From positions 64,001-128,000 of the IMG/VR virus record IMGVR_UViG_3300033153_009093: a DNA stretch of 64,000 nucleotides. One strand, written 5' to 3'. The notes beneath the pieces were generated by a model that was not told the DNA's origin, searched no databases, and saw nothing but the letters and a program-made list of their open reading frames with translations. Made by a program: the position numbers and the translations under genes. Below are positions 44,714 to 61,458 of this stretch, piece by piece. Position 1 is the first letter of the stretch; the number at the start of each line of letters is the position of its first letter. Source of the DNA: a virus.

Positions 44714-44787
44714 TGGACTCGGTTAAGAGAATCGAACTCCTATACACAGATTTAGAGTCTGTTATCTTGCCATTAGATCAAACCGAG
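44714..44787 (-). tRNA. Amber-decoding tRNA, anticodon CUA, 74 nt with encoded CCA
   Basis: CTCGGTT-TG-ATCT AATGGCA AGAT-A-ACAGA CT CTA AA TCTGT-GTAT-AGGAG TTCGATT CTCTT-AACCGAG-T-CCA. All four stems pair; anticodon at 44753-44755. Confidence 0.95.
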
Positions 44788-44839: not shown

Positions 44840-45379
44840 TTATGCATATTGCCAAGTTAATTTTAATTTTTTGTCACTAGGATGTTTCCCGGCAGATTCT
44901 CTTTTTCCTCTACAACATTCGGAAATGTGTTGATGTCTTGTATTTGCATGATTACCAGCTTTTCTTAATGAAAGAAACATAGAATTTAATTCAGGACAAT
45001 AGACTTTTTTTCTAGGTTTATTATGTAATCCATTTTCAAAAGCATGATCGCTATTTTCTTGATTAGTCATCCATTCCAAATCTTTCCAATAGTTATTTAA
45101 CTTATTACCATACTTATGATTTACTTGTGGTTTATTTTTAAAATTATCAACGAAATGAATAGCAACTAATCTATGAATAACATACGACTTCCCTTTTCCA
45201 TTATTACTAAACCATACATTAGCATATTTATTTCTAAAAGATGTTTTTAAAATAACACCTTCGGGGTATCTATGAAAACTTTTAACATTTCCCCATGATG
45301 ATATTTGATACAACCCTTCGTATCCTTTTACATCCTTCCACGTTTCAGACTCTCTATTTTTTATTTTTGTATCTGGCAT
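44840..45379 (-). CDS. NUMOD4-HNH homing endonuclease
   Basis: ETWKDVKGYEGLYQISSWGNVKS (NUMOD4) and IHRLVAIHF...VNHKYGNKLNN..DLEWMTNQEN (HNH). 6 TGG, 0 TAG. Confidence 0.9.
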   Translation of the reverse strand: MPDTKIKNRESETWKDVKGYEGLYQISSWGNVKSFHRYPEGVILKTSFRNKYANVWFSNNGKGKSYVIHRLVAIHFVDNFKNKPQVNHKYGNKLNNYWKDLEWMTNQENSDHAFENGLHNKPRKKVYCPELNSMFLSLRKAGNHANTRHQHISECCRGKRESAGKHPSDKKLKLTWQYA

Positions 45380-54839: not shown

Positions 54840-55939
54840 ATTAAATATTTTTTAACAACGGATATTACATTTTCTACATCTATAGTAGACGTATTTCTAT
54901 TTTCAAACATGACCATTAATAATGTCATTAATACTTCCATCTTTTCGCTATTATTTGTATCAATAAATTCATCTAACGTTATATCAAATTTTTCACATAT
55001 ATCATCAATTGATAAAGTTGAATCCATATCATTATTATTTTTTGCCAATTTTAATAATGAATTCAGTTCATATTCTATTTGTATTTCGCCTATAGAATAA
55101 TCTTTATATAGCTCTTCTTTAAAAGTATTATCTATAACTACTGAAGGATCATGAATAATAAATTTTACATATGAATGGTTATTAATATTCAATTTTGCAA
55201 TATTATGATAGACATCACTATCTTTCCAAATATGAAAAGTATAATACTTTATAGAGTACTTATTTTGTAATATTTTAATATTATTCTTTTCTATTAATAA
55301 AAAATTATTGTTATCATAAGAATCATTATAATTCGAATTTATAGCACTGCCTATATTTAATATATTAAAATTATTCCTATTTTTAAAAAAAGGAACATGA
55401 TTATGTCCATTTATTAAATAGACAATTTTATCAACCTTTTCAAATATAGGAATTATATTAAAAAAAGTTGATCGGAATTTATATATTTCAGAAAAATCAT
55501 TATGAGAATACAAATAATAATTCTTATATGATGTATCATTTATATATTCTTTAACATTATTAAATAAGATAGAATAATCTATACTGTTAAAAATATAAGG
55601 AATATAGATATTATTATTTTCAAAAGTTAATTCATTATATATTTTTATGTTATCATTTAATAATAATAATTCATAAATACTTTCTGTTTTAGTTATTAAA
55701 TCATGATTACCAACTAAGATATTAATATCTTTAATATCTTTGTATATCAATATCAACTCTTTAAATAATTTTAAAGAGGCATTATCTATTGTAGACGATG
55801 TAAAAATATCCCCTAAAAAAACAACTGAATCAATATCATATAACCGATTCATTTGTTTAAGAAAAGGATATAGTAATTTTGAATAAAAACTAACATTATT
55901 TTTATTTAAATGAACATCGCCTATAATTAATTTACTCAT
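54836..55939 (-). CDS. Mre11/SbcD/gp47-like recombination nuclease
   Basis: IGDVHL, LGDIF, VGNHD, SHND, NGHNH, IGS. Confidence 0.85.
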   Translation of the reverse strand: MSKLIIGDVHLNKNNVSFYSKLLYPFLKQMNRLYDIDSVVFLGDIFTSSTIDNASLKLFKELILIYKDIKDINILVGNHDLITKTESIYELLLLNDNIKIYNELTFENNNIYIPYIFNSIDYSILFNNVKEYINDTSYKNYYLYSHNDFSEIYKFRSTFFNIIPIFEKVDKIVYLINGHNHVPFFKNRNNFNILNIGSAINSNYNDSYDNNNFLLIEKNNIKILQNKYSIKYYTFHIWKDSDVYHNIAKLNINNHSYVKFIIHDPSVVIDNTFKEELYKDYSIGEIQIEYELNSLLKLAKNNNDMDSTLSIDDICEKFDITLDEFIDTNNSEKMEVLMTLLMVMFENRNTSTIDVENVISVVKKYLI

Positions 55940-55956
55940 ATTTTTAATATTTTATT

Positions 55957-56268
55957 TTATATTATAATTTCTACTAATGTAGCAATATTCATACCATCAA
56001 TCTTAATATGATACAGCGGTTTATACTTTTTGTCAACTATGAATATGTTTTTAATTCCTAATAGTATGTAATTAAAAAAATTAAATAATTGTTGTTTATT
56101 GATCATTCTATTATTGATAAACTTATTATATTCCACTTGTTTCCATTCTGTTAATATATGCTCTAAAAAAATATAAATATCATCAATATTTGACATATCG
56201 TTATAAATATTAATAATTATATAAATATCATTATCATATAAACTTATAGTGTTATCAGAAACATTCAT
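55957..56268 (-). CDS. Hypothetical protein, 103 aa
   Basis: Track ORF coupled to recA. Confidence 0.5.
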   Translation of the reverse strand: MNVSDNTISLYDNDIYIIINIYNDMSNIDDIYIFLEHILTEWKQVEYNKFINNRMINKQQLFNFFNYILLGIKNIFIVDKKYKPLYHIKIDGMNIATLVEIII

Positions 56269-56276
56269 TTATATCT

Positions 56277-57410
56277 TTACCTTTTTTTAGCACCTTCATC
56301 TATCTTATCGATAATAGTTTCTATATCTTGTGATTCTGATGCATTTTCTGAAATTTTCATTGCGGTTGAAATTGATGTAAACCTATCTAATTGAATCTTA
56401 TCATTTTCAAAATAATAATTAAAAATTCTTTCTTTTGATTCTTCTACAAATTTTTTATCATCATCGGGGTAAAACTCATTGAAGATGCTATTAATAGCAT
56501 ACTTCCATTTATTGACACATTTATCGGTTAATAAATATTGATAAAAATCTTTTAATCGATGTTTATTATCTTTATCATCTGCAAAGAAATACCAACCTGA
56601 CCTTGATCCTATATCCTTTTTTGATTTCAAATAATTAATAAGTGTCAACGGGGAGTCGTATCCTGAAGTATTTGTAACTTCGAATTCTATTTTTCTATGC
56701 GGTGATATTATTTTACTTTTTTTAGTTTGTATAGTTGACACAAATCCAAATTCAGGATTAATCAATTTTGACTTCTTTCTTGTTGCATATAATGTCAAAA
56801 ATGATTTATGTTTTACAGCATTACAAGAAGGTGGTTCAACGGGCATATATTGACCTTGCATACTTTCCCTATGCTGATTCAAAGCAAACATAGTTAAATT
56901 ATTATCATAAAATTTTGTAATTCTAAATAATTTAGTAAATGCTCTTGCTTGCATCCCTATCTTTTCATATCCATCCAACTCTTCATTGGCGGGAGTTTGT
57001 TGTAATGTATCCCATATAATAAATAAATCTACTCCGGGATTATTTTCTTTAACCTCGAAAATAATTTGTCCCGCTCTTTCAATTGATTCGGGATTAAGAA
57101 TTATAACATTATCTAGGTTTTCTATTCCTAATGATTTTAATCTCATACCTGTTACTGATTCTTCTGTATCAAAATACAAAGCGATATATTCTTTTGATTG
57201 TTTTATATATGATGATAATATTTGTATTGCCAATGTCGATTTTCCAACTGATGAAGTTGCCCAAATATATTCCAATTGATATTTTGGCATACCACCTGAA
57301 CCAATAAAAGCATCAAATATAGGATTTCCTGTTAAAAAGAAATCATAATTATCATCTATTTTTATAATGTCCTTTTTTAATGTTTTGCGCAAAGCATCTA
57401 AATTTACCAT
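56277..57410 (-). CDS. recA: RecA/UvsX-like recombinase
   Basis: TGNPIFDAFIGSGGMP, ATSSVGKST, YFDTEES, IWDTL, ALNQHR, SGWY. 4 TGG, 0 TAG. Confidence 0.85.
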   Translation of the reverse strand: MVNLDALRKTLKKDIIKIDDNYDFFLTGNPIFDAFIGSGGMPKYQLEYIWATSSVGKSTLAIQILSSYIKQSKEYIALYFDTEESVTGMRLKSLGIENLDNVIILNPESIERAGQIIFEVKENNPGVDLFIIWDTLQQTPANEELDGYEKIGMQARAFTKLFRITKFYDNNLTMFALNQHRESMQGQYMPVEPPSCNAVKHKSFLTLYATRKKSKLINPEFGFVSTIQTKKSKIISPHRKIEFEVTNTSGYDSPLTLINYLKSKKDIGSRSGWYFFADDKDNKHRLKDFYQYLLTDKCVNKWKYAINSIFNEFYPDDDKKFVEESKERIFNYYFENDKIQLDRFTSISTAMKISENASESQDIETIIDKIDEGAKKR

Positions 57411-57432
57411 TTCATATCCTTTTTATTTAATA

Positions 57433-57954
57433 TTATAGCGTATCAGGAGAAAGCATATTATCAATATCATCAATATCCTCACCTGATGATAAGTCCATTT
57501 TTATTCTATCATTATCTAATTTTTGTAATTTTAATAAATTATTGGTTATATCATTTAAAATTGTTCTTCGGTCTGATATAACTTGTCTAATTAAATCTAA
57601 CATCTTTACAATATTTTCTTCATTAGTCATTTCATTATGACTATCAATATATTTTTTAAATAATAGTTTTTGATACTTATATTCCTTAATAGCCAATTTA
57701 AGCATTAGAATTATTGATCTGAATGTTATATTTTTAGACATTGAATCAGTGAGACTTGTTATATTATCTATATCAGAAATTACATCATCTGCATAAATAT
57801 TTAATTCATCATTCTCTTTTAATAAATCAAAAAAGAGTTTAACGCTAGATGTATTATTATAACTGTTACTGTTAACATTTTGTTCGGGCCTTAAATTTTG
57901 AATATTATTTTTTATATTTTCAAAATTCGTTAGTGGTATATTTTTTTGTTCCAT
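57433..57954 (-). CDS. Hypothetical helical protein, 173 aa
   Basis: Track ORF; AGGT upstream. Confidence 0.6.
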   Translation of the reverse strand: MEQKNIPLTNFENIKNNIQNLRPEQNVNSNSYNNTSSVKLFFDLLKENDELNIYADDVISDIDNITSLTDSMSKNITFRSIILMLKLAIKEYKYQKLLFKKYIDSHNEMTNEENIVKMLDLIRQVISDRRTILNDITNNLLKLQKLDNDRIKMDLSSGEDIDDIDNMLSPDTL

Positions 57955-58023
57955 GTTTATTTACCTATAATAAAATTATATATAATTAATTTCATAATCT
58001 AATACATAAAAAGGATTATTATA

Positions 58024-58518
58024 ATGCTTCGGATACCTAATATATTTATAGAAAATATTACCCATATATCAGCTAAACCTTTCTTTGATATAAAATTTGA
58101 TTCCATAAAAGGAGTTAATATAAATAATGATTTTTTAGACATCATTTTTTACAGGTCATTAATAGGAAAAGTATCTTCTAAAAAAAATGGAATCAAAATA
58201 AGATACTTTGATGAAAATAATAATATATTACATAATTCTAATATTTCAAAATTTAAAAAAACTATTTATGAAAACAAAAAAATAGTATCAAATAAAAATA
58301 GTATCAAAATTAAAAAAAGTAATAATTGTAAATACCTAACTCGATTAGAAATTATTTTTACATATAATAGTATAGACACTATTATATTTGATACTAAAAT
58401 TCCACAGAATACAATATTTTCTGAAAACACTAATGGAACTATTAAAAGTGGCATAGCTATTCCTTTAAATGAAACTAATATTGAATTGTATAATAAATTT
58501 CAAATAATATATAAATAA
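58024..58518 (+). CDS. Hypothetical protein, 164 aa, directly upstream of the dead TnpB-like gene
   Basis: AAGGA RBS; TAA ends one base before ATG 58520. Confidence 0.65.
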   Translation: MLRIPNIFIENITHISAKPFFDIKFDSIKGVNINNDFLDIIFYRSLIGKVSSKKNGIKIRYFDENNNILHNSNISKFKKTIYENKKIVSNKNSIKIKKSNNCKYLTRLEIIFTYNSIDTIIFDTKIPQNTIFSENTNGTIKSGIAIPLNETNIELYNKFQIIYK

Positions 58519-58519
58519 T

Positions 58520-59851
58520 ATGAAAAAGTGTATAAAAAATTATTCTATAAACATATCATCATCTAATTATAATAAATTAACCAATTATTTATTATACTAT
58601 AATAAGTGTAAAAATTTATTTTATAATAAATATTAGAATGATATCGGTACAATATATTTACCATATAAATATGAACTACGAGATACATTAGTTTCAAATA
58701 TAAAAAATAATGATTTGAATATTAATGAATTGGATTTATTAAAAAGCGTTCCCGCTAAATTATAGAAAAACGCATTAACTGAATCTATAACTAATTTAAA
58801 ATCTAATTAGTCTAATACAAAAAATAGAATTAGACAAAAAATAAAAAAGAACAAAAATTTTTCTGAAAAAGATACTCATTATTTATATTATGTACTTAAA
58901 TCAAATAACATATTACATAATATAAATAATGGAGATTTGAATATAACCTTAGAAAAATTTGATGTAAATTATAAAAAACTTAATTCATATTTATATCGAC
59001 AAATAAAAAAAGAAAAAAGAAAACCTTATTCTAAAAGTAATAGTTATATTATAGATAGTAGCTCGCAAATATTATACAAACAAATAGATAATAATTTAAT
59101 TTGTTTCCTATCAACATTAAAAAAACGAGAAAGGATTTTAATCCGTTTATCAAATAGTATAAAATATAAAGGCGATATTCGTATAGTATTAAAAAATAAT
59201 AAAATGGAACTACATAAAGTTATTAATATTAAACCTCAATTAAATAACAACAATTCTATTACTGGAATTTATATTGATTTTAATAATTTATTCACAACCC
59301 AAAATAATATTTATGGTAAAAATTTCGATAAACTATTAAAAAAATTTGCACATATTATTCACTGTAAATCAAATAAAAGGGAAATCCTTAAATCAATGAA
59401 TAATATACTAATACAAAAAAATAACTTAGGTACAAAAAAATAGCACAGTAAAAAAAGAAAATTTATTAATGAATTAAATTCCTTTATAAATTTGAATTTG
59501 AATTTATTAATTAAAGAAGAGCGGCCTAAAACTATTATTATAAAAAAAATAAATAAATATTTATTATATAATAATAGAGATAATTTATTTAATATTCCAA
59601 ACCATCATTTATAGATCTTAAATAATTATATAATAAATTACATTTATAAACGATTAGAATACAAAACACAATTAAATCAAATTAATATAATATTAGATAG
59701 TTCAAATTATACAATCAAAGTATGTAATAATTGTAAAAGTAGAAATACTATTATTACAAAAGGGTACTTTAAATGTAATAATTGCATGGTTAGTATAACT
59801 AAAACATCTAATACAATAAACAATATGATTGAGCATCACGGTGTTAATTAA
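58520..59851 (+). CDS. TnpB-like protein with degenerate RuvC active site, 443 aa
   Basis: VPAKL*KNALTESITNLKSN*SNTKNRI, NNLGTKK, KRLEYK, CNNC...CNNC Zn ribbon. RuvC positions read GIYIDF, IIIKKI and ITKTSN, with no acidic catalytic residues. 5 TAG; ends TAA. Confidence 0.8.
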
Positions 59852-59961: not shown

Positions 59962-59992
59962 ACCGGAGAAGATTTTCTTCTCCGGTTTTTTT
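59962..59992 (+). terminator. Intrinsic terminator, probably bidirectional
   Basis: ACCGGAGAAGA-TTT-TCTTCTCCGGT 11-bp stem followed by a T-run, between convergent genes. Confidence 0.85.
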
Positions 59993-60443
59993 ATAGATAC
60001 TTTTCAATTTTTTTATTAGTACTTTCATGTAAAATCATATCACTTTTATTTTTATTAAAATATGATTTTGGTGTGCCTTCAAATTTTCTCGACATTCCCC
60101 TCTAATCGGCAATCATTTGAAGTATGTATTTTTTTGGCATTTCAATAGGAATTATTTCATTTTTCCTTGTTACAGATACCTAGTAATTCTAATGATGTTT
60201 ATTTCTTTTTTGATGTTTATTCTACCCTTGTTGAAATAATTTATCGTTTCCATCAGATTTACAATAATTATTTAAGCTATCTTTCTTTTCAAAAAAGATA
60301 GCAGATGGTATAAATTCGGATGGTAAAAATTTTGATAAGTCATGAGTAATTGCATGATAATATAGTCCCATGTTGATACATTCTATTCCTACATTCTTTT
60401 TATGCTCAATAATATATTTAAAATATTTCTAATATTTATTCAT
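59991..60443 (-). CDS. DUF5662-like (HD-type) protein, 150 aa (absent from the ORF track)
   Basis: MNKY*KYFKYIIEHK, AITHDLSKFLPSEF, QQG*NKHQKRNKHH*NY*V, IPIEMPKKYILQMIAD*RGMS. TAG at 60429, 60222, 60189, 60180 and 60102; no TGG. Confidence 0.85.
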
Positions 60444-60453
60444 TTTTTAACCT

Positions 60454-61458
60454 TTAATTAAATAATTTATTATTTAACTTAATAATTTTTGATTTCATAT
60501 TAGCAATAGAAAAGTTTATACTTTTACTTATATCTTTTTCAACGAATATATAATAATACATTACCATTGACATAAATATATCTCCGCATCCTGAAGTAGT
60601 ATTTATATTATTTATAATAGTATGACTTATATCTATTTTAAATTCTTTTATTTCTTTTTCATTACTATTATCAAAATAAATAATATCTTTAATGCCTCTA
60701 GTTATAATAAGGTACTTATAATCATACGCATATATTAAATCTTTTACCGGTTCATATTCTTTTTCATTTAGTTGTATTATAGTTTCGGTATTATATACGC
60801 TCTTTAATTTAGAAATCAATTCTTTAAAATATAATATCTTATGAGGTTTTGTATTTAAAAATAATGTATCTATTTTCCATTCATTATAAATAATATCATT
60901 TAATAAATTTTTTATAGATTCTTCAGTAAAGTACCCCTTATCATAATCTATAAGTATTAAAGAATTATTTTTTTCTTTAAACGCATAATTACAATTGATA
61001 TGTTTCATTTTTATATCATTATCAATATCAAACCGATAAAAAATTTTGTTTTGTTTTTTTGAATAGAATCTAAATTTTACTGTCGGTTTAATAGTATCAT
61101 TAAGATAATATATCGGCCTCATTTTAATTATATCAAAATGGCGATAGTTCTTATTGCTTAGATATTTTATACTTCTATCAAATATCTCTTGTAAATTAAA
61201 TCCATGCAATTTATCGTCATAGTTCACGTAATTAAAATTTGGTAATAAGTATTTAACATTATAGTCAAAATTTAAATCGTTGTTGATAATATCTAATAAA
61301 TTTTCTAATATAAATCCACAACCACCGGGGTATACCGATAATGAATTATAATAACCTTTATATGATTCACTATTTACAATTTCTTGATTTTGTGATATAT
61401 TTACATTATCAATATAAACATCTGCAATATAGTCACCTAAAATTACACTATTATTCAT
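60454..61458 (-). CDS. PfkB-family kinase, HldE/RfaE domain-I-like
   Basis: VILGDYIADVY, PGGCG, DYDKGYF, NTKP, LNEKEY, ITRG, TSGCGDIF. Confidence 0.75.
   Translation of the reverse strand: MNNSVILGDYIADVYIDNVNISQNQEIVNSESYKGYYNSLSVYPGGCGFILENLLDIINNDLNFDYNVKYLLPNFNYVNYDDKLHGFNLQEIFDRSIKYLSNKNYRHFDIIKMRPIYYLNDTIKPTVKFRFYSKKQNKIFYRFDIDNDIKMKHINCNYAFKEKNNSLILIDYDKGYFTEESIKNLLNDIIYNEWKIDTLFLNTKPHKILYFKELISKLKSVYNTETIIQLNEKEYEPVKDLIYAYDYKYLIITRGIKDIIYFDNSNEKEIKEFKIDISHTIINNINTTSGCGDIFMSMVMYYYIFVEKDISKSINFSIANMKSKIIKLNNKLFN

Follow-up and report, generated by a model that had tools for sequence, protein, structure and literature searches.

A DUF5662-family gene with five in-frame TAG codons

The DNA analyzed here is a 64,000-nt window (the whole stretch under study) that covers bases 64001-128000 of the 180,374-bp IMG/VR virus record IMGVR_UViG_3300033153_009093. 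The record has inverted terminal repeats, is rated complete, and has a GC content of 24%. A DUF5662-family gene is located on the minus strand of the window at positions 59991-60443. It has 150 sense codons, an ATG start codon (60443-60441), and a TAA stop codon (59993-59991), and it contains five in-frame TAG codons. These are codon 5 (60429-60431), codon 74 (60222-60224), codon 85 (60189-60191), codon 88 (60180-60182), and codon 114 (60102-60104); the plus strand shows CTA at all five sites. The comparisons reported below indicate that the gene is almost certainly intact and that it belongs to an AT-rich tailed phage of 180 kb, which reads TAG as tryptophan (Trp) and still uses TAA and TGA as stops (NCBI translation table 32).

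When the frame was translated with the standard code (table 11), the longest in-frame pieces were 49 and 34 amino acids. The gene is therefore missed by the usual 60-amino-acid cut for open reading frames (ORFs), just as a preliminary description of the window had stated. That description had also counted five TAGs, three of them within 15 codons, and no TGG. The recount agreed: codons 74, 85, and 88 fit that span, and the TGG count was zero. The frame had no frameshift and no internal TAA or TGA, and its sole "defects" were at five Trp columns. A six-frame profile search ran through the five TAGs with 92.9 bits and found this single DUF5662 copy in the genome.

TAG codons occupy the conserved Trp columns of the family

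The translation was searched for homologs with X at each TAG. The search returned 200 homologs, and the best 120, which were 57-71% identical to the gene, were aligned. These standard-code homologs had W at the columns of codons 5, 74, 85, 88, and 114 in 91, 117, 120, 120, and 119 of 120 sequences, respectively; the other residues at codon 5 were L, F, or I. The five columns were the only W-dominant ones among the roughly 150 columns of the family. The chance that five random positions match exactly the W columns is 1/C(150,5) = 1.7e-9. The preliminary description had proposed family motifs around the TAGs. Their wording was only approximately right, the actual consensus being MYWxYFKY, GWNxHQKRNKHHWNYW, and MIADWxGM, and their main point stood, as all five TAG positions are W columns.

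The same description had argued that glutamine (Gln) is hard to reconcile with the five TAGs, and the alignment bore this out. None of the 120 homologs had Q at these columns, and the conserved Gln columns Q71, Q78, and Q109 use ordinary CAA or CAG in the gene. A hidden Markov model (HMM) built from the homologs only was used to score TAG as each of the 20 residues. The score was 260.5 bits for W, 243.2 for F, 243.0 for Y, and 234.3 for Q. The Pfam DUF5662 model (PF18907, gathering cut-off 27) gave 114.1 bits with TAG as W vs 91.6 bits with TAG as Q. With TAG as W, all 29 invariant columns of a 56-sequence DUF5662 alignment were kept, including W74, W85, and W88.

W74 is near H77 and Q78, W85 directly follows the invariant H83-H84 pair and is itself followed by W88, and W114 directly follows the invariant D113. 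Four of the five Trp residues thus border invariant His or Asp residues, which explains their conservation. The closest homologs sit on phage-like contigs. The one homolog with readable DNA (P0018) translates by table 11, and its Trp codons are therefore TGG. Comparative evidence can hardly provide a cleaner test in a single gene.

Codon usage across the phage genome

Under table 11, ORFs of at least 300 amino acids covered 33% of the window; treating TAG as a sense codon raised this to 81%. No gain in ORF coverage of the window was observed with TGA as sense. With TAA as sense, only short ORFs were added: the coverage by ORFs of at least 100 amino acids rose from 74% to 90%, and that by ORFs of at least 300 amino acids rose from 33% to 36%. 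Such a gain of short ORFs is the chance level expected at 22% GC.

The 178 ORFs of the genome hold 300 in-frame TAGs and 270 TGGs and end with TAA (148) or TGA (30). In the 62 TAG-bearing genes, TAG made up 1.11% and TGG 0.17% of codons, whereas TGG made up 0.85% of codons in the 116 TAG-free genes. Tyrosine (Tyr) codons (7.0 vs 6.6%) and Gln codons (2.1 vs 2.3%) were unchanged between TAG-bearing and TAG-free genes. The TAG:TGG ratio was 6.7, and the A:G ratios of ordinary synonymous pairs spanned 5.2-10.8. TAG thus behaves as an A-ending synonym of TGG under AT pressure.

Trp codon usage was bimodal. Four or more Trp codons were present in 54 genes, of which 19 used TGG exclusively and 27 used TAG for at least 80%. 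From this bimodality, we argue for a host that follows the standard code and for a need to read the TAG-free genes before the code is switched. TAG is used in about one third of the genes, chiefly in a 47-106 kb block, and the remaining genes have none. This block, which we took as the virion block, has the largest genes, mostly without a family match; terminase and capsid-like genes are located at 22-32 kb. Pfam analysis of 20 other TAG-rich genes gave almost no matches. The exceptions were a Cas12f TNB domain, nuclease domains of the DUF4379 type, and Terminase_6N, which matched weakly (23.1 bits with W, 19.7 with Q).

No enrichment of TAG near ORF ends was found, with 9 TAGs in the last 10 codons vs 7.6 expected, so there is no sign that TAG still serves as a stop. 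Separately, in three ORFs (genome 81531-82064, minus strand; 72806-73945, minus strand; 55925-58711, plus strand), a TAG was located exactly two codons before the TAA or TGA stop.

Terminase genes and related phages

The large terminase gene (TerL) of the phage has nine TAGs and no TGG, and three of its TAG columns are W in distant standard-code homologs. Among close TerL relatives (proteins 60-78% identical), Q and W alternated within the same columns. Two of these relatives, P0122 (78% identical; L010:10001-11812) and P0123 (64%; L009:3880-5685), matched their own DNA only when TAG was translated as Q, indicating that the public collection had translated the clade under code 15. A third relative (P0127) follows table 11 and has W in the alternating columns. 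The Q/W alternation within single TerL columns is accounted for by mistranslation. At the codon level, 59 TAGs could be aligned with TerL-bearing relatives; they faced TAG in 32 cases, TGG in 17, aromatic codons in 8, and CAA or CAG in none. An IMG/VR search with the TerL protein alone found no related locus.

Next to TerL, the relatives have another DUF5662 gene, a paralog that is about 31% identical. TAG encodes its four invariant W columns, with TGG in one case. In one relative (L010:12046-13832), the paralog shares 4 nt with the end of a PolyA_pol/CCA-adding-like gene next to the terminase gene, an arrangement that may hint at a role of DUF5662 in RNA-end or tRNA repair. The PolyA_pol homolog of the window's phage (genome 25022-26269) has no such DUF5662 neighbor.

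The genome of the window's phage (G000) was also compared with two more distant complete phages, G001 (276 kb) and G002 (233 kb), over 178 ORF pairs. The partner had TAG opposite 13.3% of the Trp codons of G000, 1.35% of its Tyr codons, 0.56% of its phenylalanine (Phe) codons, and 0.07% of its Gln codons (1/1351). The partner spectrum of TAG mirrored that of TGG. In both G001 and G002, TAG occurs in frame and TGG is depleted in the TAG genes. The DUF5662 HMM found no homolog in either genome.

A tRNA(CUA) and a TrpRS-like synthetase

The 180-kb record has a single tRNA gene, with the anticodon CUA (window 44714-44787, minus strand; detected by ARAGORN, and with 59.4 bits by Rfam RF00005). It lies inside a TAG-free gene block. 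The predicted tRNA has the anticodon loop CUCUAAA, the pairs C1-G72, U2-A71, and C3-G70, the discriminator U73, and an encoded CCA end. It is presumed to be the decoder of TAG. An HNH endonuclease gene (window 44840-45379, minus strand), TAG-free and with six TGGs, is located directly upstream of it.

When the tRNA was compared by blastn with 50,697 phage records, the anticodon arm was matched and nothing more. A scan of IMG/VR with the 17-nt arm found only unrelated CUA tRNAs and chance matches in coding sequences. The identical arm, ACAGACTCTAAATCTGT, was present in six otherwise unrelated phage CUA tRNAs (L019:6561-6636, L023:3197-3272, L027:2801-2890, L029:7996-8072, L030:11748-11823, and L032:1928-2017). 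Those of L027 and L032 are 90 nt and have a long extra arm. The identity of the arm in unrelated tRNAs suggests convergence on one efficient amber-reading arm.

The phage also encodes a class Ic synthetase of 316 amino acids that resembles tryptophanyl-tRNA synthetase (TrpRS). Its gene is outside the window (genome 134073-135023, minus strand; L006:8076-9023), and the protein matched Pfam tRNA-synt_1b with 83.6 bits. The gene contains neither TAG nor TGG, and the protein is hence Trp-free. Trp was likewise absent from all 10 members of the synthetase family (relatives P0142-P0151), and 13 of 52 distant class Ic matches were without Trp. The alignment showed the motifs HIGH, YPVLQ..D (YPxLQxxD), DQ (GxDQ), and KMSKS. 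The family is highly divergent: among 1.8 billion representative sequences, only eight were found at E < 1e-30, and the next matches came at E of about 1e-7. Contigs were read for three relatives (P0142-P0144), and all were phage or phage-like.

The 3D structure of the synthetase was modeled using AlphaFold 2, with a mean predicted local distance difference test score (pLDDT) of 81.8. The rows listed by Foldseek against the PDB were all TrpRS, the best being 2g36 (E = 4.8e-12). A profile of the synthetase family matched 2g36, the TrpRS of Thermotoga maritima, over its full length (positions 1-327) with E = 5.5e-22; the best match to a tyrosyl-tRNA synthetase (TyrRS) had E = 8e-8. The C-x22-C-x6-C-x2-C motif of the enzyme (C-x22-C-x(4-6)-C-x2-C in the family) aligned with the Cys motif of 2g36. 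In the T. maritima enzyme, this four-Cys motif coordinates a 4Fe-4S cluster close to the anticodon site.

The two complete phages carry the same synthetase family, at 47% (G001) and 42% (G002) identity. Their tRNA(CUA) genes also encode C1-G72, U73, CCA, and the loop CUCUAAA, and the remaining molecule differs. The G001 tRNA has a long extra arm (91 nt in total) and was missed by the Rfam tRNA model. In both phages, a TAG-free gene for release factor 2 (RF2), with the SPF and GGQ motifs, is located within about 1.2 kb upstream of the tRNA (G001:C1:111431-113043 and G002:C1:92519-94839; L119 and L120), and the synthetase gene is elsewhere. The strongest case for a dedicated pair comes from this recurrence, in which the synthetase family, the acceptor-end signature, and TAG recoding appear together; the case is correlative.

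In relatives, the TrpRS-like gene is overlapped at its end by a gene with in-frame TAGs, one each in L013 (2314-3603), L014 (10998-12251), and L035 (10992-12233), and two in L034 (10983-12242). In L013-L015, the first TAG is near codon 33 of this gene, so gene callers split it into ORFs of 33 and about 382 amino acids. The ortholog in the window's phage (genome 132851-134086) is without TAG.

Alternative meanings of TAG

Several points weigh against TAG being read as Trp by these components. The support is comparative throughout. Column 5 of the DUF5662 family is only 76% W. Bacterial tRNA-Trp is marked by G73 and a CCA anticodon, and tRNA(CUA) has neither. Its sequence does not reveal its amino-acid identity; the anticodon arm is common to unrelated phage CUA tRNAs and resembles that of tRNA-Tyr. 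Against NCBIfam, the synthetase of the window's phage scored 40.3 bits with tyrS (cut-off 113.8) and 32.1 bits with trpS NF008922 (cut-off 572), and other family members also matched both models below the cut-off. The tRNA (genome 108.7 kb) and the synthetase (134 kb) are 25 kb apart and form no single module. No release-factor gene and no known anti-RF1 factor were found in the genome of the window's phage.

Public pipelines assume for this clade that TAG is read as Gln (code 15), and the collections hold the terminases P0122 and P0123 in that form. Phage surveys have also reported no TAG reassignment other than code 15, and CUA tRNAs tend toward glutaminylation in E. coli (Borges et al. preprint 10.1101/2021.08.26.457843). 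We nevertheless consider Gln extremely unlikely. In DUF5662, it lacked support from any of the 120 homologs, fell 26 bits under W with the homolog-only HMM, and has CAA or CAG of its own at the conserved Q columns. In the wider comparisons, 0 of 59 aligned TAGs faced a Gln codon, and TAG faced just 1 of 1351 Gln codons. Gln codon frequency was equal in the two gene sets, with TGG depleted five-fold in the TAG genes. No gene of the GlnRS/GluRS type (glutaminyl- or glutamyl-tRNA synthetase) was found in the genome. The Q residues in the relatives' terminases follow from the collection's own translation.

Another aromatic residue, most plausibly Tyr, could be inserted by a TyrRS-like class Ic enzyme acting on a C1-G72 tRNA. 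C1-G72 is a determinant of archaeal and eukaryal tRNA-Tyr, and tyrS was the top NCBIfam match of the phage synthetase, although below threshold. Tyr and Phe were the second-commonest partners of TAG in the alignments, and one known phage TyrRS:tRNA(CUA) pair decodes UAG as Tyr (PMC12636597). This reading is very unlikely for several reasons. Y and F scored 17 bits under W, on four invariant W columns. The codon depleted in TAG genes was TGG, not TAT or TAC, and if TAG were Tyr, these genes would hold just 0.17% Trp. TAG was found opposite Trp codons at ten times the rate opposite Tyr codons. In structure and profile searches, the enzyme favored TrpRS over TyrRS by 14 orders of magnitude; the four-Cys motif is a further feature in common with the T. 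maritima TrpRS. In TyrRS, the residue two before the conserved N-terminal Gly is Tyr; in the phage synthetase family, it alternates between Y and F.

The TAGs could also be real stops, with DUF5662 a decayed pseudogene or expressed by rare read-through. The short table-11 pieces would agree with this, as would the missing RF2 gene and anti-RF1 factor. A gene that is 57-71% identical to intact homologs apart from its TAGs, keeps every invariant residue, and is hit at five Trp columns only makes decay hardly credible. Moreover, the 300 in-frame TAGs in 62 genes obey the same rule, including those of the terminase gene and the entire virion block of a complete genome. Pyrrolysine has a negligible probability. 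Its only support is the ARAGORN label "tRNA-Pyl", which follows from the CUA anticodon. No PylS homolog was found in the genome (TIGR02367), the TAG columns are Trp and not Lys, and K scored 28 bits under W.

Gene neighborhood and the DUF5662 protein

A TAG-free gene of 334 codons (phrog_8133; 60454-61458, minus strand) ends 10 nt upstream of the DUF5662 start, and the two genes are probably in one transcription unit. The upstream order on the same strand is the ribonucleotide reductase large subunit gene (TAG-free, 10 TGGs), a terminator-like hairpin, the 334-codon gene, and the DUF5662 gene. A UvsX-like recombinase gene is also near. On the plus strand, a TnpB/Cas12f-like gene with a TNB domain (58520-59851; 443 amino acids, five TAGs, no TGG) is convergent with the DUF5662 gene, and a terminator-like GC-rich hairpin with a T-run (59962-59986, plus strand) is located between them. 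The TAGs of the TnpB-like gene aligned to W or aromatic residues in three homologs. It is a transposon-type nuclease gene fully adapted to the phage's code. Together, the two genes form a TAG island in the TAG-free replication and nucleotide-metabolism block at 117.8-136.5 kb of the genome.

The DUF5662 protein was modeled with AlphaFold 2 at a pLDDT of 92. Foldseek found no PDB match to the model at E up to 0.001, a sequence profile search against the PDB also gave nothing, and there was no Pfam HD match. The top VIA-align rows were HD domains of HD-GYP and PgpH proteins (Z = 6.1, 6.0, and 5.6 over 115-122 residues), values that lie in the noise range of helical proteins. A resemblance to an HD metal site (H...HD...H...D) was seen in the invariant residues H14, H34-D35, H77, H83-H84, and D113 of the family alignment. 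Our best guess, held with moderate confidence on the basis of Z scores of about 6 and this motif, is that the protein may be a small HD-type metal-dependent phosphohydrolase.

Discussion

A mechanism can be proposed for how the phage would use TAG as Trp. Early genes would be in the standard code and would be translated first. These TAG-free genes would include those for the tRNA(CUA), with its unusual acceptor end (C1-G72, U73), and for the Trp-free, divergent TrpRS-like synthetase. The synthetase would charge tRNA(CUA) with Trp, and the TAG-containing genes could then be completed. At 24% GC, TGG would drift to TAG in genes that are dispensable before the switch. The DUF5662 gene would give no useful product before that point because its codon 5 is TAG, despite its place 10 nt behind a TAG-free gene. 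The codon-5 TAG fits such translational timing, which has been proposed for other recoded phages (Borges et al. preprint 10.1101/2021.08.26.457843), and it also fits plain drift, with TGG turning into TAG in a gene that is dispensable early. Taken over the related phages, the code of a TAG = Trp clade with its own tRNA and synthetase is well supported, and the mechanism plausible.

The same codon table, with TAG as Trp and TAA and TGA as stops, is NCBI table 32, as confirmed by translation. It was described for the plastids of Balanophora and Thonningia, members of the Balanophoraceae; like the phage, these genomes are extremely AT-rich and have TGG largely replaced by TAG (PMC10268348). The plastid genome is a plant genome of 15-20 kb with its whole gene set recoded, whereas the phage genome is 180 kb and only about one third of its genes use TAG, the others remaining readable under the standard code. 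The phage, unlike the plastid, brings its own tRNA(CUA) and TrpRS-like enzyme.

Among phages, the nearest parallel in codon is code 15, used by crAss-like, Lak, Agate, and other phages (10.1101/2021.08.26.457843; PMC9523058). They too recode TAG in structural genes, leave other genes standard, and carry a suppressor tRNA(CUA), and some of them carry RF2, as do G001 and G002. The difference is that code 15 phages insert Gln with a proposed reliance on the host GlnRS, whereas the window's phage would insert Trp with a dedicated TrpRS-like enzyme. In phages whose code differs from that of the host, only TAG-to-Gln and TGA-to-Trp have been seen, and the TGA-to-Trp module of Jade phages consists of TrpRS, a suppressor tRNA, and RF1 (Borges et al. 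preprint 10.1101/2021.08.26.457843). Phage TrpRS:tRNA(UCA), GlnRS:tRNA(CUA), and TyrRS:tRNA(CUA) pairs and a UAG-to-Ala tRNA have been characterized, with no UAG-to-Trp among them (PMC12636597). Our phrase searches for TAG- or UAG-to-Trp in phages found no paper, most subscription papers being outside the search.

The Jade module and the TrpRS:tRNA(UCA) pairs of AP1 and HF2 also combine a phage TrpRS with a stop-reading tRNA, both encoded in the standard code, and a switch from stop to Trp has been proposed for them. They decode TGA, whereas the window's phage decodes TAG, so its synthetase must accept U35 in place of C35 in the anticodon. The discriminator differs as well, being U73 with C1-G72 here and G73 or A73 in the reports on AP1 and HF2. 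For the two remaining stops, Jade phages have RF1; in our clade, RF2 is present in the relatives and absent from the window's phage. The adjacent tRNA, synthetase, and release factor genes of the Jade type were not found in the window's phage, nor in G001 and G002, where the synthetase is apart.

We lean, with some reserve, toward the view that these AT-rich jumbo phages of 180-276 kb are one clade with a self-contained TAG-to-Trp code. Its decoding pair would be co-evolving and perhaps orthogonal to the tRNAs and synthetases of the host, with a Trp-free, probably Fe-S TrpRS that accepts CUA and a tRNA that has C1-G72 and U73 as its marks. RF2 would be an addition in some members. If the pair works in this way, it would be a natural Trp pair for amber suppression that differs from all those described, and its unusual identity set would be of interest for genetic-code expansion. 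The code would also be one that current gene callers silently mistranslate as Gln. Tools choosing among tables 4, 11, and 15 will pick 15 for such phages. Gln at every recoded Trp in public proteins, such as P0122 and P0123, corrupts alignments, profiles, and structure predictions.

The stop-codon recodings known in phages are limited to TAG-to-Gln and TGA-to-Trp, together with TGA-to-Gly in cases where the host has made that change too. TAG-to-Trp would add a third route, and recoding would then not be confined to two side reactions of the host GlnRS and TrpRS. The similar outcome in Balanophoraceae plastids points to strong AT pressure as a force that repeatedly drives TGG to TAG once a decoder exists.

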